Origin: Ignavibacteriales bacterium | GTDB taxonomy: Bacteria; Bacteroidota; Ignavibacteria; Ignavibacteriales; Ignavibacteriaceae | Length of the DNA stretch: 64,000 bases | Assembly: GCA_016707285.1 (NCBI GenBank) | Contig: JADJIA010000006.1 | Span: 8,268-72,267, forward strand | Direction of reading: 5' to 3' | In this document: piece after piece, positions 545-51,595 of the stretch | Layout: each line of letters begins with the position of its first letter | Position numbering within the stretch: position 1 is the stretch's first letter | Made by a program: the position numbers and the translations under genes | Notes under the pieces: generated by a model | Database searches by the model: none | What the model saw: only the letters and a program-made list of their open reading frames with translations | What the model was told of the DNA's origin: nothing

Positions 545-705
545 AGGGTACGCGGATACACGCAGATTAGACAGATTCTCGCAGATAGCGATTATTATTC
601 TTATCCTCCCCTCTACTTTTAGGAGAGGGGTCGGGGGTGAGGTCCATTAAGTGGTTTCCCTCAATCCCCCCTTTGCGTCCTTAGCGGCCTTTGCGGTTTA
701 ACTTT
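545..705 (-). repeat. Composite intergenic repeat, copy A (inverted relative to copy B)
   Basis: The reverse complement of 546-584 is CTGCGAGAATCTGTCTAATCTGCGTGTATCCGCGTACCC, which aligns with 24746-24783. The reverse complement of 670-700 is AAACCGCAAAGGCCGCTAAGGACGCAAAGG, which matches the AACCGCAAAGG...ACGCAAAGG units at 24532-24565. It fills the gap between the convergent pdxH and EamA genes. Confidence 0.7.
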
Positions 706-24235: not shown

Positions 24236-24475
24236 TCAAGGAACGGGATCATAACCACTGCCACCCCATGGGTTACATCTTAAGATGCGCCAGATTCCAA
24301 GGCGTAAACCCTTAAATGGACCATGTTTATGCAACGCTTCGATCATATAGTTTGAACATGTCGGATAAAACCGACAACTGGGAGGGAAAAGGGGTGAGAT
24401 CAATAATTGATAGCCACGGACTATCGCTACAAGCAGATATGACACGGCGTTTGCCATAAATCTGATAAATTTCAT
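24236..24475 (-). CDS. yidD: Membrane protein insertion efficiency factor YidD
   Basis: [58 protein letters not shown] is a near-consensus YidD sequence. Confidence 0.93.
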
Positions 24476-24529
24476 CTAATACCAATCGTCCAAAATATCT
24501 CTCATTCAATTCACAATTTAAGGGTTTTA

Positions 24530-24786
24530 GGTTTAACCGCAAAGGACACAGAGAACGCAAAGGATGATTTTAAACCGCAGAGCACACAGAGCACACGGAG
24601 GAATTTTGAATTTAACCGCCAAGTACGCCAAGAACGCAAAGGATAATTTTTAAAAACCACAAAGCACACAGAGGGCATTACTCAAAATGACCCTCCGTGA
24701 AAATCCGTGTGAAATCCGTAAAATCCGTGGAACTATTCTCTTCCTCTGCGAAAATCTGTTTATCTGCGTGTATCTGCGTCCCCTTC
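24530..24786 (+). repeat. Composite intergenic repeat, copy B (largest copy)
   Basis: Four degenerate units of about 39-40 bp, each beginning TT(T)AAACCGC/AAAACCAC (starts near 24532, 24571, 24611, 24650) and rich in CGCAAAGGA / CACAGAG. Next come three units of 9-12 bp, AAATCCGTG (24699-24730). The terminal module is CTGCGAAAATCTGTTTATCTGCGTGTATCTGCGTCCCC (24746-24783). Confidence 0.75.
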
Positions 24787-24806
24787 CTACGACAATCCAC
24801 CATCCC

Positions 24807-27650
24807 CTACCTCAGTAGCACCATCTTTTTCATTGATCGGAAGTCACCTGCGCGGAGTTCACAAAAATAGACTCCACTCGTTAATCCCGAAGCATCAAAC
24901 TCAACTTTATGTTCTCCGGCGGTCATATTACCATTTATCAATACAGCAACTTTTTCTCCCAGTGTGTTAAACACATTAAGTGTCACCATTCCCGACACGG
25001 GCATCGAAAACCGGATAACAGTTGACGGGTTAAATGGATTTGGATAGTTGTCAAATAGCTTATAAGCAGATATTGTTGAAGCATCACCAGCTTCATTAAT
25101 TGAATTGATAACACCCGGATAATAAGCTGCAGAAACCAAACCAATCAGTCCCGTTGAACCGATAACAGTCCCGTTTCCGCTCGATTTTTCGATTGCTGTA
25201 AACTCACCACTTACAGATGCCACACCGGTAAAACCAAATAAATTTGCCGATTCATCAAAAAACAGAGACCTGACGGGTTTGTTATTTCCCAGATTACCAA
25301 TTCTGATTGTGTCGCCGGTTCCTTGCACAATTCGCAAAATCTTGTCTTTGTCGGCACCAAGTGGTTTATAAATGGAAGCAAAAAGCCGGTTGTTTAACGG
25401 TTCAAATGCAATAGCAGAAACAGTACACTTCACCGAATCAGTTCTGAGTACTGAATTTTCAGTTTCGTTGTATTTATATAAAATGTTCCTTTTTGATACC
25501 AGATAAAGAGTCCCTGAAGTATCAAATGCACTACTCGTAACATCTGCCAGATCGAGGGTGGTTCGGGAGTAGAGTTTACCGCTGTTTGCGTCCATTTTAT
25601 GGAGAAGCGTTTGTCCCCCGTTCGCTCTGAATCCATATATCACACCAGTTTTTGGATTTGCCGAGATCGAGCTAAAGGTGGTGCCTCCCGCAGGTCCAAG
25701 AAGTGTTGACTCACCGGTTGACTTGTTAATCAAGAAGGTTCCACCACTATTTGTGGAATTTGTAACCACAAGAATTTTTTGAGGAGCAACCGGATTGAGA
25801 TCAAAAGATTCCACTCTTACAGGGATTCTGTTTTCAACCGGGTCGTTATCAACCAAAACCAAAGTATCGTACAACATTCCTGCTGTCTGTGGATCGCAAA
25901 CCATGCTGATTGAAAGGCTGTCAAAAGAGTTTATTGTAAGTGGATATTGCAACTGACCCACCAGACTAAATGCCGGATTTGACAAACCTGCCGAGTTAAT
26001 TATCAACTGTTGTGAACCTACATTTATCATCTGAAAGGTGATAGTGTCTTTCTCTTTTCCCCTCTCCATCTCCAAAAAGTCTATCTTTGGAATATCTGTA
26101 AGCAACGAAGCACCTGTAACAGGCATCATTCTTACTTCACCCACCCGGTTGCTCCATACACTTGGAGCTGCAACATATTCACTCATCATCCAAAATGTTT
26201 CACCTGAAGGATCAAGTGAAATTCCAAGATAGTCACCCCACCTGTTTCTGCCACTCCCGTAGTCTTTTTGATATTGCCCTCTCCCGGACATCAGAAGATA
26301 AGGTTGTGTAAAAGTGGTTGATCCATTCTGTTTTCCAACATAGTAGGCACTTACATATTCAGTTGGACTTGAGCGACTTACTGTGAAAACCATATTTCCT
26401 GCCTTGTCGATCATGATGGCAGGGTAAAAATACCAGGTTGAAGGTGTCCCAAAAGTTAACTGTTCTATCGGCTGTGATGTGAGAGGATTTAGTCGTGCCA
26501 CTCTAACTGCGGAGAATGAACCATTCGCCGGATTTCTTGTTGAATGTGTTAGCCAAATTGACCCGTCTCTGTAAACAGGTTCGTTGGTAAGTTCAGGACC
26601 ACTCGATTCCAATGCCACCCCGCCCGGTTGCGATGCCTGTGGTGGATCACTATAAGCTGTAACCGGAACAGCGCTTCCACTAAGAGCCGGGATACCATTT
26701 ACATCGTAAGTAACTCTGTAGATTACATAAGCATTTGAAGAATAATATGGCACATGCACAAAATATGAGGTATCAGAAGGTGTAAAGTGAATTACAGGCC
26801 TGATATTAAAAACACTTTGACTGTTCCCCGGATACTTAATGTTCCAGAAGTCATACCATTTACATGTGTCTGTTGAATTATTGTAAATCTCAGATTTTTT
26901 AATCACCCTGATCTTTGCATAATCAAAGTAACCACCAAAATTGAATTGATTTGATGTGATTAGAAAATTTTCTTCATCGAACCCGACTCCCTGATAATCT
27001 CCCCAGTTGGATGTAGTGGTTGCACCATTAATATTTGACGGCATCAACCAGTTTCGCCATGTTCCCAAAGGATTTGAGTCATCAGAAACAGAAATCATGA
27101 TATACCCTCTTTGCGGGGAATCTCTTTGATCGAGCCATACCATCACCCATCGTTGAGCAAAATGATCATAAACAACTTTTGGATCAAACGGGTCAACACC
27201 AAAACTTGAATACCAGTTGCCGGCATCAATTCTTTTTAACAGATTACCATTTTTGTCCCAAATTGCAAAATCGGAGTTAACAGTTCCTACAACATGATCC
27301 GGACCCACTGCCACATGAGGATCGGGAGGGATCGAATTCGACTCTGTGTTTCCTTCAAAACTTTTTATCAATGCCACTCCCCCTGCTTCGGTTGAGACAC
27401 CACCCTCATTATAAATATCAAGTTCGCCCGGCAACTTCTCATTATGTTCTATACTGAACGCAAATCCTTTAAATCTTATTTTATTTCGAACAGTCTCAAA
27501 TTTTGGAGATTTGCTGACAGGTTGATTTGTGAACGAATTTGTGGTTACATAAACGCCGCTTGCATAACTCCCAAGCGCAGGTCCCTGATGACTCTGGGAA
27601 AAAACACTGTTTGCGATTAATAGAGTTGTAAGAATGAGGATTTGCCTCAT
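24807..27650 (-). CDS. Large secreted protein of unknown function with a T9SS type-A C-terminal sorting domain
   Basis: Signal peptide (LLIANSVFSQ). An N-terminal region of about 500 aa has no motif I recognise. A central Ig-like segment (DTITFQMINVGSQQLIINSAGLSNPAFSL). The C-terminus is FDNYPNPFNPSTVIRFSMP...GVYFCELRAGDFRSMKKMVLLR. Confidence 0.8.
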   Translation of the reverse strand: MRQILILTTLLIANSVFSQSHQGPALGSYASGVYVTTNSFTNQPVSKSPKFETVRNKIRFKGFAFSIEHNEKLPGELDIYNEGGVSTEAGGVALIKSFEGNTESNSIPPDPHVAVGPDHVVGTVNSDFAIWDKNGNLLKRIDAGNWYSSFGVDPFDPKVVYDHFAQRWVMVWLDQRDSPQRGYIMISVSDDSNPLGTWRNWLMPSNINGATTTSNWGDYQGVGFDEENFLITSNQFNFGGYFDYAKIRVIKKSEIYNNSTDTCKWYDFWNIKYPGNSQSVFNIRPVIHFTPSDTSYFVHVPYYSSNAYVIYRVTYDVNGIPALSGSAVPVTAYSDPPQASQPGGVALESSGPELTNEPVYRDGSIWLTHSTRNPANGSFSAVRVARLNPLTSQPIEQLTFGTPSTWYFYPAIMIDKAGNMVFTVSRSSPTEYVSAYYVGKQNGSTTFTQPYLLMSGRGQYQKDYGSGRNRWGDYLGISLDPSGETFWMMSEYVAAPSVWSNRVGEVRMMPVTGASLLTDIPKIDFLEMERGKEKDTITFQMINVGSQQLIINSAGLSNPAFSLVGQLQYPLTINSFDSLSISMVCDPQTAGMLYDTLVLVDNDPVENRIPVRVESFDLNPVAPQKILVVTNSTNSGGTFLINKSTGESTLLGPAGGTTFSSISANPKTGVIYGFRANGGQTLLHKMDANSGKLYSRTTLDLADVTSSAFDTSGTLYLVSKRNILYKYNETENSVLRTDSVKCTVSAIAFEPLNNRLFASIYKPLGADKDKILRIVQGTGDTIRIGNLGNNKPVRSLFFDESANLFGFTGVASVSGEFTAIEKSSGNGTVIGSTGLIGLVSAAYYPGVINSINEAGDASTISAYKLFDNYPNPFNPSTVIRFSMPVSGMVTLNVFNTLGEKVAVLINGNMTAGEHKVEFDASGLTSGVYFCELRAGDFRSMKKMVLLR

Positions 27651-50154: not shown

Positions 50155-50787
50155 ATGGCAGACAAAATTCAATCATACACTACTATTAAATCAAAATCAG
50201 AATCGAAATATAAAGAGAAGGGATCAATCTTTCTTGCATTTGCACACCCCATAAATTCAATTTTCGATTTTGATGAAATCCTCCACGCTTATCGTAAACA
50301 ATTTTATGACGCCGTTCACCACTGTTCGGCTTACAAACTGATCGATGGTTCTTTCAAATATTCCGACGATGGTGAACCCGGTGGAACCGCCGGTTTGCGA
50401 ATTTTTAGCGCAATCGAACGTGCCGGACTTAACAACTGTGCTGTTATCGTGGTCAGATATTTTGGAGGGGTAAAATTAGGAACCGGTCCGCTGGGAAAAG
50501 CCTACTACGAAACGGCAAACGAAGCACTCTCAAATGCAGAAAAAATCTTTTTCCATCGATTCGACAGGTATGGTTTTTCTGCCCCTTATGAATTATCATC
50601 GTTTTTATATCGACACTTAACAAACGATTATGTAAAAATCAACAGTTCCGATTATGCAACCGGAATAAACCTTGATACATTCCTCAGAAGTGATTCTGCT
50701 TCTAAAATAATAGAAGAAATTATCGCAGGGGCAAACGGGCAGGTGGAAATTATCGATAAAAAGGAGGAGAGATTCTTTGAACTTTAG
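50155..50787 (+). CDS. yigZ: YigZ/IMPACT-family (UPF0029) protein
   Basis: KGSIFLAFAHP..., DDGEPGGTAGLRI, AVIVVRYFGGVKLG are typical of the family. Confidence 0.85.
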   Translation: MADKIQSYTTIKSKSESKYKEKGSIFLAFAHPINSIFDFDEILHAYRKQFYDAVHHCSAYKLIDGSFKYSDDGEPGGTAGLRIFSAIERAGLNNCAVIVVRYFGGVKLGTGPLGKAYYETANEALSNAEKIFFHRFDRYGFSAPYELSSFLYRHLTNDYVKINSSDYATGINLDTFLRSDSASKIIEEIIAGANGQVEIIDKKEERFFEL

Positions 50788-50880
50788 AACCTCGGAACTT
50801 CAGAACCTCGGAACTTCAGAACTTCAGAACCTCGGAACCTCGGAACCTCGGAACCTCGGAACCTCGGAACTTCAGAACCA
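50779..50880 (+). repeat. 8-bp tandem repeat array (GAACCTCG / GAACTTCA), about 12.75 units
   Basis: Unit order: GAACTTTA, CCTCG, TTCA, CCTCG, TTCA, TTCA, CCTCG x5, TTCA, then a partial GAACCA. The first unit contains the yigZ stop TAG (50785-50787). Confidence 0.95.
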
Positions 50881-51004
50881 AACAATTCTATCCGCGTTCA
50901 TCCGCCTCATCCGTTTCATTCGCGTTCTATTAAAAATTCCGCTCTGCGTAACTCTGTTTAATCTGCGAGTATCTCCCGAAGGGATGCCTTCGGCATGCAG
51001 TCCC
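50881..51004 (+). repeat. Composite intergenic repeat, copy C (3' modules)
   Basis: ATCCGC-type units of about 10 bp (TATCCGCGTTCATCCGCCTCATCCGTTTCATTCGCG). The terminal module is CTGCGTAACTCTGTTTAATCTGCGAGTATCTCCC (50944-50977). A 7-bp hairpin CCGAAGG/CCTTCGG (50976-50993) follows, and the copy ends TCCCC at the stop of the converging gene. Confidence 0.7.
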
Positions 51005-51595
51005 CTAAAATCTCTCTGCTTGTAGGAAAGTCTGTTGTAGTAGAGTCATTATTTTATTTTCAACGGTTTTGCCGTCGGGTGGGAGTTTTCCATATGACCA
51101 TTTGTTTTCAAACGGGTTGAATGAGAATCTAATAGCTACATCTCTTTTATTATCATAGTGATAAACATTAATCCAATTTAATTTTACAAAAGACACAAAT
51201 CCCAGTATTATCGGCTCGTTTTCCGATAACATCACATATCGTTCTTTTCCATGTTTTGCTTTGTTTCGTAACAATAACAGTATTATCGGATGGAGTGGAA
51301 GTTCGGCTAATTTTGTTGCAGTATGTTTGCTTACAAACCGGATTTCCATCGACTTCATGAAATCTCCATGATTCTGCAAAAAATCGCTGCAATTACATTC
51401 AATCCTGGTGATTTTATTTAAAGTTGAAGCGTCCAACTTTACACCATAACCCAAAACCGGTTTAAAGTAAAAGTTCCGATTGTGCTCCTCCATGCTGCTA
51501 ATCGCATCCCGAAGATCATCAAATTCACGCAGTCCTTTTTTGAGCGGTCTTTTAATCTTTTTATCTGATATTTCGATTTTATCTTCTTTTTTCAT
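51005..51595 (-). CDS. Hypothetical protein
   Basis: A 196-aa ORF with a basic N-terminus and no signal peptide. The only motif noted is CNCSDFLQNH, a weak and incomplete resemblance to a SWIM CxC...H finger. Confidence 0.6.
   Translation of the reverse strand: MKKEDKIEISDKKIKRPLKKGLREFDDLRDAISSMEEHNRNFYFKPVLGYGVKLDASTLNKITRIECNCSDFLQNHGDFMKSMEIRFVSKHTATKLAELPLHPIILLLLRNKAKHGKERYVMLSENEPIILGFVSFVKLNWINVYHYDNKRDVAIRFSFNPFENKWSYGKLPPDGKTVENKIMTLLQQTFLQAERF

Follow-up and report, generated by a model that had tools for sequence, protein, structure and literature searches.

The window analyzed here (64,000 nucleotides; contig JADJIA010000006.1 of assembly GCA_016707285.1, positions 8,268 to 72,267) contains a gene-less intergenic element at 24530-24783 that is built from short repeated words. 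We predict that this element is the "shell" of a GxxExxY cassette, whose complete form encodes a protein with a PDDEXK_3 nuclease fold, and that it is part of a mosaic kit of repeats; we consider this reading probable. In a complete cassette, a gene of about 125 amino acids (aa) is bracketed by inverted oligomer arrays, either heptamers about one DNA turn apart or triplets of 9-mers. The arms are polar, with an outer end of TTTAACC in the 9-mer type or GCGTCCCC in a module that we call M1. In upstream arms the inner end is AAGGA- or GGAGG-like and may serve as the ribosome-binding site of the nuclease gene.

The source is an uncultured Ignavibacteriaceae bacterium, represented by a metagenome-assembled genome of 3.76 Mb and 39% GC that is 90% complete and is labeled G000; 10 other species of the same genus are labeled G001 to G010. 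Gene calls in G000 are crude (longest open reading frames of at least 80 aa). The element lies between yidD and a gene for a 947-aa type IX secretion system (T9SS) C-terminal-domain protein. Because yidD is the true downstream neighbor of the 947-aa gene, the gap is 24476-24806, bounded by the 947-aa gene stop and the yidD start. Module orientation was set from gene-bearing copies, with L for an outer end on the left and R for an outer end on the right. The gap and its neighbors contain the following features:

24236-24475, minus strand: yidD (79 aa; PF01809, E = 2.6e-31), conserved in four close species
24530-24569, plus strand: unit 1, upstream-type (L) arm with outer end GGTTTAACC, 9-mers CGCAAAGGA CACAGAGAA CGCAAAGGA, and an AT spacer; matches 34/38 to the upstream arm of cassette L164 (G006)
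24570-24610, plus strand: unit 2, upstream-type arm of the CGCAGAG / CACAGAG / CACGGAGG type; matches 27/30 to the GxxExxY arm of L165 (G003)
24611-24649, plus strand: unit 3, upstream-type arm, CGCCAAGTA CGCCAAGAA CGCAAAGGA; matches 33/40 to the upstream arm of L164
24650-24675, plus strand: unit 4, shortened upstream-type arm, AAACCACAAAGCACACAGAGGG; matches 19/20 to the arm of L165
24673-24693, no strand: AT-rich shell center of 21 nt with partly complementary ends, GGGCATTACTCAAAATGACCC; the expected position of the gene
24693-24736, plus strand: module M2, downstream-type (R) arm of four ATCCGTG-type heptamers 9-11 bp apart plus GAACTAT; matches 23/25 to the outer arm of cassette L170
24744-24783, plus strand: module M1, downstream-type (R) arm, CTCTGCG aaa ATCTGTT t ATCTGCG tgt ATCTGCG TCCCC; matches 36/40 to the GxxExxY downstream arm of L171 (G003)
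24807-27650, minus strand: the 947-aa T9SS C-terminal-domain protein gene, with its stop codon (24807-24809) facing M1

The first-pass annotation, a model's reading of the letters, described three nested tiers of repeats, including four units of about 40 bp, and the sequence is as described. In each of the three tiers, short words are repeated every 9 to 11 bases. Each ~40-bp unit is made up of a TTTAAC end, three CRCARAGNN 9-mers (such as CGCAAAGGA, CACAGAGAA, and CACGGAGGA), and an AT spacer. The second tier had been given as three copies of AAATCCGTG; the tier is real, but it actually contains four heptamers (CTCCGTG, ATCCGTG, ATCCGTA, and ATCCGTG, in order) followed by GAACTAT. The outer terminus of M1 is its CCCC end, 23 nt away from the 947-aa gene stop. 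The module order is LLLLRR (four upstream-type arms, the center, and two downstream-type arms), and other left-right junctions in the genome have similar AT-rich centers of 16-25 nt. The arms are only partly complementary. Folding of the element beats shuffled sequence on both strands (z = -3.4 for the transcribed strand and -3.75 for the other), because CACAGAG and CACGGAG words pair with CTCCGTG and CTCTGCG.

Genes that carry these arms were found in the sister species. A scan of G000 for small genes with inverted flanks returned one Y1 transposase and one GxxExxY protein (PF13366, TIGR04256). The latter is encoded by the sole PF13366 gene in G000 and is flanked by ATCGTG arrays. Across the genus, 14/14 PF13366 genes are bracketed by inverted oligomer arrays, several of which are modules of the window:

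L164: upstream TTAACCGCAAAGGACGCAAAGAACGCAAAGG, with its complement downstream
L165: CACAGAG-type arms
L168, L170, and L171: upstream GGACGCAGATACAC..., downstream ATCCGCGAAAATCCGTTTAATCTGCGTGTATCCGCGTCC
L166: CACGGAT-type arms; the M2 heptamer also flanks this GxxExxY gene

GxxExxY genes of Anaerolineae, Ardenticatenales, and Stahlbacteria have flanking arrays of like kind. No solved structure was matched by the sequence of the GxxExxY protein, and a survey of the PD-(D/E)xK superfamily lists PF13366 as a family of unknown function with multiple transfers (PMC3424549). A literature search found no published description of GxxExxY cassettes or their arms, nor of cassettes of PDDEXK_3 or PF05635 (four-helix-bundle) proteins with inverted repeats. 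G006 encodes two GxxExxY cassettes that are ~90% identical and lie at unrelated sites (L174 at C193 and L177 at C158). Both are bounded by GTCTGAATCAG...CTGATTCAGAC and each lies directly after a T-run, which for L174 is part of a terminator-like hairpin. This pair, and the agreement of GxxExxY protein clade with arm type, suggest that a gene and its arms move as one.

In gene-bearing cassettes the upstream arm ends on its inner side in AAGGA or GGAGG, 6-7 nt 5' of the nuclease ATG. This bears on an earlier suggestion that the element is a CsrA-type sponge or other regulatory small RNA acting through A(N)GGA motifs, of which the upstream units have four or five (AAGGA / GGAGGA). The motifs are accounted for because they are the inner ends of upstream arms, in the position of a ribosome-binding site in gene-bearing copies. 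In addition, a search for csrA (PF02599) gave no match in the 90%-complete genome, and the element is missing from the corresponding gap of G007. An Rfam scan of the window at gathering thresholds returned only two tRNAs, a permissive scan of the element returned nothing at E up to 10, and 8 further loci with palindromic or gene-bearing forms also had no Rfam match. The sponge idea did not survive these checks, and we regard a regulatory RNA of this kind as extremely improbable.

The modules follow an orientation rule that would be expected of emptied cassettes. Genome-wide, adjacent modules form 32 LL, 21 RR, 18 LR, and 1 RL junctions (18 vs 1, p about 8e-5), and the lone RL junction adjoins a genuine GxxExxY gene. 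LR junctions mix arm types (M2 with 9-mer, M1 with 9-mer, 9-mer with M2, M1 with M1, M1 with ATCGTG, and others). The arms thus keep their outer ends outward even where the two sides are unlike, so the shells look like cassettes without a gene. Several shells with unlike arm types fold no better than shuffles (z about 0), and "one long hairpin" was dropped as a general description of shells for this reason.

The orthologous gap differs among close species. Orthologues of the 947-aa gene are 90-93% identical in G002, G007, and G008, and yidD is the next gene in each. In G007, the TGA stop is followed by 34 nt and the yidD ATG, and the element is absent. In G002, a TAG stop overlaps the M1 end (TAGGGGACGCAGAT), M2 is absent, and a TTCCGACTTGTCGGAA hairpin is found twice, with one copy within a 9-mer unit. 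In G008, a decayed M2 is located outside M1. Because the gap differs from species to species, the element is dispensable and changes module by module. Shells are thus gained, lost, and rearranged by module between close species. Among the roles first proposed, that of a non-autonomous mobile or recombinogenic repeat is supported by these results: the family is dispersed, it turns over between species in which the flanking protein is >90% identical, and sister species have its arms around GxxExxY genes.

Some smaller features of this neighborhood were also seen. A 9-mer unit of G002 is interrupted by a TTCCGACAAGTCGGAA hairpin, and M1 at the orthologous gap in L017 (G002) and L018 (G008) has a 17-18-nt insert (CCACCACTGCTGACAGG[T]) between two heptamers. 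Distant orthologues of the 947-aa gene adjoin four-helix-bundle genes in L024 (G001:C19:50694-50978) and L157 (G009:C2:578591-578884), one of which is broken by three stop codons; more distant orthologues are followed by other arrays (CTATGA, GGTATTA, and GTGTAGAG). The neighborhood of the 947-aa gene repeatedly attracts such cassettes.

The genome has a large repertoire of related repeats. The M1 core 12-mer TCTGCGTGTATC is present in 46 copies in 3.76 Mb (<1 expected), an nhmmer profile of M1 finds 57 copies at E < 0.01, and M2-like modules number about 72 in a blastn-short census. When all intergenic gaps of 40 nt or more were compared with one another by blastn, sequence common to at least 3 other gaps was present in 310/1654 gaps and totaled 33-55 kb. 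Such repeats are found in 37% of convergent, 17% of co-directional, and 10% of divergent gaps. Modules in the richest gaps include M1, M2, an ATCCGCG variant, ATCGTG arrays, 9-mer triplets, several 8-mer arrays, and a few hairpins. There is also a module of ~45 nt, M4 (TTTGCAGACGGCAATCGGGACGATTACCACTCC...; for example, at C9:55816-56038 and C8:18554-18968), that contains a hairpin. The third pair of this hairpin reads G-T on one strand but C-A on the opposite strand, which hints that M4 folds on one strand only.

The conserved end of M1 had been said always to face a converging stop codon. This is so for the three copies in the window (16, 23, and -1 nt from the stop), but genome-wide the CCCC end faces a stop in only 39/57 copies, against a background of 44%, and a start codon in the other 18. 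The median distance from the outer end to the stop is 61 nt. Within co-directional gaps the stop-facing copies number 21 vs 11 (p = 0.11). Facing the stop codon is a tendency and not a rule. A stronger regularity is one of distance: in 42/56 copies M1 has its outer end closer to the gene it faces than its inner end is to the gene on the other side (p = 2e-4).

These positions could be those of an RNA-level 3'-end element (an alternative terminator, a 3'-UTR stabilizer, or an RNase III site) that is retained for that role. The preference of repeats for 3' ends, with the difference between convergent and divergent gaps, is consistent with such a role, as are the M1 bias and its short median distance, the folding of the transcribed strand, and the precedent of similarly built rRNA intervening sequences that are cut by RNase III (PMC4990558). 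However, the same gap in G007 lacks the element and has only 34 nt between the genes, nearly a third of the M1 copies face a start, the co-directional excess is not significant, and many shells fold no better than shuffled sequence. No intrinsic terminator (a GC-rich stem with a U-run) occurs within 24530-24806 on either strand, as the first-pass annotation had observed. Further, identical modules bracket a gene on both sides and in both orientations. With the element absent in G007, its orientation to transcription not fixed, and no U-run, the earlier idea of a terminator or 3'-UTR function finds little room, and we judge it improbable. Cassette shells are mostly located just past stop codons, where insertion does little harm.

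We infer that the shells are selfish or neutral DNA and not host regulators, and that the shell studied here is co-transcribed in the message of the 947-aa gene and yidD, where its partly complementary arms would be able to fold. Such folded arms might be cut by RNase III, as rRNA intervening sequences are.

The kit has the features of repetitive extragenic palindromic (REP) sequences and bacterial interspersed mosaic elements (BIMEs): it is extragenic, present in many copies, a mosaic of motifs, and enriched at 3' ends. An ordinary REP/BIME family could be mobilized by the IS200-like or REP-associated tyrosine transposase (RAYT)-like enzyme of this genome. The Y1 transposase gene (C1:655500-656075; PF01797, E = 2e-29) is flanked by inverted GGCCCCGGAnGGGG..TATGGGTAGA repeats, its repeats also form tandem arrays in the gaps that contain M1 and M2, and the overall mosaic resembles BIMEs. 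However, M1, M2, and the 9-mer units are not found at the Y1 gene and have no sequence in common with its repeats; they flank GxxExxY genes instead. The Y1 protein also scores 29.7 bits, against a cut-off of 80, with the NCBIfam model for REP-associated tyrosine transposases. We therefore think it very unlikely that the window element is a REP/BIME family of this type. In the strict sense, the element matches no known REP, MITE, or BIME-type family: Rfam has no family for these modules, and they are not associated with a RAYT. The kit also includes a unit of ~57 bp, GGCCCCGG...TATGGGTAGA, and this Y1-type unit occurs as tandem arrays in other gaps (for example, C6:222142-222808). The Y1 transposase and its repeats are probably a separate REP/RAYT-like system in the same mosaic kit.

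Known REP/BIME and REPIN-RAYT systems of Enterobacteria and Pseudomonas resemble the kit in being extragenic, in many copies, located after stops and in convergent gaps, mosaic, and in having a single-copy gene within inverted repeats. They differ in that the gene associated with the window modules is not a Y1/HUH transposase, while the Y1 gene of the genome has a different repeat. The arms here are phased oligomer arrays, whereas a REP is one imperfect palindrome, and unlike arm types join in one shell.

DNA of the element has matches in 9/10 other species of the genus. Amplification of the M1 12-mer is confined to this genus; the 55 other genera sampled from the family have 0-1 copy (chance level). 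A longer M1 word, the 21-mer AATCTGCGTGTATCYGCGTCC, turns up in >104 stretches of a species collection of 596 Gb, against a chance expectation of about 0.5. These stretches come from at least 8 other phyla and include Chloroflexota, Ratteibacteria, WOR-3, TA06, Stahlbacteria, Planctomycetota, Thermodesulfobacteriota, Acidobacteriota, Verrucomicrobiota, and Proteobacteria. Outside the genus it is mostly the right arm of a palindrome of ~70 nt, GGACGCAGATnnACGCnGAT...ATCTGCGnnAATCTGCGTGTATCTGCGTCC. Mis-binning is unlikely, since the flanks there are GC-rich, unlike Ignavibacteria. The arm types common to several phyla point to horizontal spread. As for carriage by phages, only one IMG/VR contig has the M1 21-mer.

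Alternatively, the heptamers, one helical turn apart, may be bound by a protein, which could be the GxxExxY nuclease, some other enzyme that binds the ends, or a nucleoid protein of the host; this binding would drive their conservation and copying, as for NTS/Ssn or REP/RAYT. The 9-11 bp spacing, the exact 21-mer common to several phyla, the fit of every heptamer type to NTYYGYG, and the match of arm type to GxxExxY protein clade are in line with this. There is a precedent in small GIY-YIG nuclease genes that are flanked by repeats they cut (PMC11893778). Against it, M1 abundance does not track GxxExxY presence within the genus, and the match of clade to arm type is also expected from co-inheritance alone, with related genomes being non-independent samples. 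We keep protein-binding arrays as a minority possibility, on balance unlikely. The counts of M1 12-mer copies and PF13366 genes in each species are as follows:

G007: 47 copies, 0 PF13366 genes
G000: 46 copies, 1 PF13366 gene (other arm type)
G008: 40 copies, 0 PF13366 genes
G002: 24 copies, 0 PF13366 genes
G004: 24 copies, 2 PF13366 genes
G006: 15 copies, 4 PF13366 genes
G009: 13 copies, 1 PF13366 gene
G003: 12 copies, 3 PF13366 genes
G005: 10 copies, 0 PF13366 genes
G001: 6 copies, 3 PF13366 genes
G010: 1 copy, 0 PF13366 genes

A more ambitious proposal is that the GxxExxY nuclease and its phased-heptamer arms form a new autonomous mobile element. The nuclease would recognize or cut the arrays, and the shells, which are far more numerous, would be non-autonomous derivatives that spread between phyla, settle at stop codons, and outlast the gene. 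We hold this only tentatively and consider it rather unlikely.

Several results weigh against the cassette-shell reading. M1-armed GxxExxY genes are found only in G001, G003, and G006, which have 6-15 M1 copies and are among the poorest, and G000 has no cognate M1-armed GxxExxY gene. Because M1 abundance does not track GxxExxY presence, a resident nuclease that mobilizes its own arms does not fit. No clear target-site duplication was seen at the junctions of empty G007 versus filled G002 and G000. The empty state of G007 is not polarized, because gene order differs in more distant species. Hairpin formation cannot explain the orientation rule, since mixed-arm shells fold at z about 0. The direction could also be the reverse, with genes inserted into pre-existing palindromic repeats. 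Separately, the G000 assembly was searched for the counterpart of the site that holds the M1-armed cassette in G003, and it lacks the genes on either side.

One of the nearest described parallels to GxxExxY cassettes is the NTS (dRS3)/SRM family with its Ssn GIY-YIG nucleases (Chenal et al. 2025, PMC11893778), in which a small nuclease gene is flanked by a short repeat that is also scattered without the gene, in several phyla. The fold predicted here is PD-(D/E)xK-like, whereas Ssn is GIY-YIG. The arms here are 3-4 phased heptamers or 9-mers of many types, whereas NTS is one hairpin of 20-50 nt. Ssn is encoded in 81% of genomes rich in Ssn-related motifs (PMC11893778), whereas repeat abundance here does not track the gene. 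A small GIY-YIG nuclease was considered as a partner and rejected: the genome encodes only two large GIY-YIG frames (588-647 aa), which are probably UvrC-like.

A second type of cassette in the genus encodes four-helix-bundle proteins. G000 has a single PF05635 gene (C13:2100-2405), which lies between inverted GTCACAGA / GTCACGAA arrays. In the genus, 26/26 examined copies (of 31 matches; L135-L163 range) are located between inverted 7-8-mer arrays. The array word differs from copy to copy but is in some cases the same at orthologous sites. Most often, the array begins at or inside the stop codon of the upstream gene. A few array units close all three frames, because each unit has a stop triplet on one strand. 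One filled and empty pair was seen, L141 (G004:C11:16803-17099) and the uninterrupted G000 C8:22230-22250. The L141 cassette is inserted 5 codons before the original stop of the host gene; the host gene gains its present tail and stop from the array, and its old tail persists beyond the cassette. Four-helix-bundle cassettes were rejected as a source of the window element, as none has M1, M2, or 9-mer arms.

These cassettes are similar to the 23S rRNA intervening sequences with an S23p open reading frame in Coxiella and Leptospira, where a small frame lies between complementary termini (PMC4990558); the PF05635 genes of the genus also lie between inverted 7-8-mer arrays. The Coxiella intervening sequence has tandem GACAGAT heptamers in variable number just upstream of the frame, and sequences of this kind are excised by RNase III (PMC4990558). 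They are located in helix 25 or 45 of 23S rRNA. The elements described here differ in being located between protein-coding genes, and the window modules match GxxExxY and not four-helix-bundle cassettes.

The window contains two further intergenic loci with kit modules. The first-pass annotation had noted copies of the terminal module near 546 (minus) and 50944 (plus), and the nhmmer profile recovers both:

546-586, minus strand: M1 copy 2, left orientation (nhmmer profile); outer end 16 nt past the pdxH stop (527-529)
604-645, no strand: hairpin module in the middle of a shell, CCCCTCTac..GAGAGGGG and then TCGGGGGTGAGGTC; recurs in many gaps
670-702, minus strand: 9-mer-triplet arm, right orientation, CCTTTGCGTCCTTAGCGGCCTTTGCGGTTTAAC; outer end 11 nt away from a convergent stop codon at 714-716
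50779-50880, plus strand: octamer array (GAACCTCG / GAACTTCA) that begins inside the stop codon of a 210-aa gene
50890-50927, plus strand: ATCCGCG-type heptamer arm, right orientation
50942-51005, plus strand: M1 copy 3, right orientation, with a 22-nt insert (nhmmer); 1-nt overlap (its final C) with the stop of a 196-aa gene (51005-51007)

The element at 546-702 has the order L-hairpin-R, and its outer ends are 11-16 nt from two convergent stop codons. The GAACCTCG / GAACTTCA octamers also flank PF05635 genes in L156, L162, and L152, and the array at 50779-50880 is explained by the arm type of the four-helix-bundle cassettes of the genus. In M1 copy 3, a double mini-hairpin (TCCCGAAGGGATGCCTTCGGCA, 50974-50995) splits the last heptamer between ATC and TGCAG. 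This 22-nt sequence (TCCCnnnGGGA TGCCnnnGGCA) is present at 23 sites in the genome, for example, C3:62297, C7:204677, and C5:420831. Its position is recurrent, inside heptamers between ATC and YGYG (M1 unit 2, M1 unit 4, and ATCGTG arrays), as if it were a tiny insert that favors one site. Its variation is confined to the two loop triplets and is therefore uninformative on pairing.

Miniature inverted-repeat transposable elements (MITEs) and transposons with multiple subterminal repeats (Mu, Tn7, and IS21, and Ac and En/Spm of plants) have ends made of phased, inverted short sites, and their gene-less derivatives outnumber complete copies. The elements described here differ in having no transposase-type gene and no target-site duplication that we could see. 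The short tandemly repeated repetitive (STRR) heptamers of heterocystous cyanobacteria are contiguous tandem repeats with a 7-bp period, intergenic and of unknown function; they are not known to be linked to a gene cassette. Compared by description only, STRR repeats are similar to the arrays here as intergenic tandem heptamers and differ in their contiguous 7-bp period, which is 9-11 bp here.

About a fifth of the gene gaps of this genome hold repeats of the kit, and the arm sequences are found in several phyla. Reading these repeats as cassette arms would prevent their misannotation as terminators, small RNAs, or CRISPR-like arrays, and would explain why array units so frequently supply stop codons. 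GxxExxY proteins, which are very common and have no assigned function, would gain a testable candidate substrate. The pairing would be the third of a small nucleic-acid enzyme gene with a genome-wide repeat, after REP/RAYT and NTS/Ssn, and here the repeat thrives without the gene.

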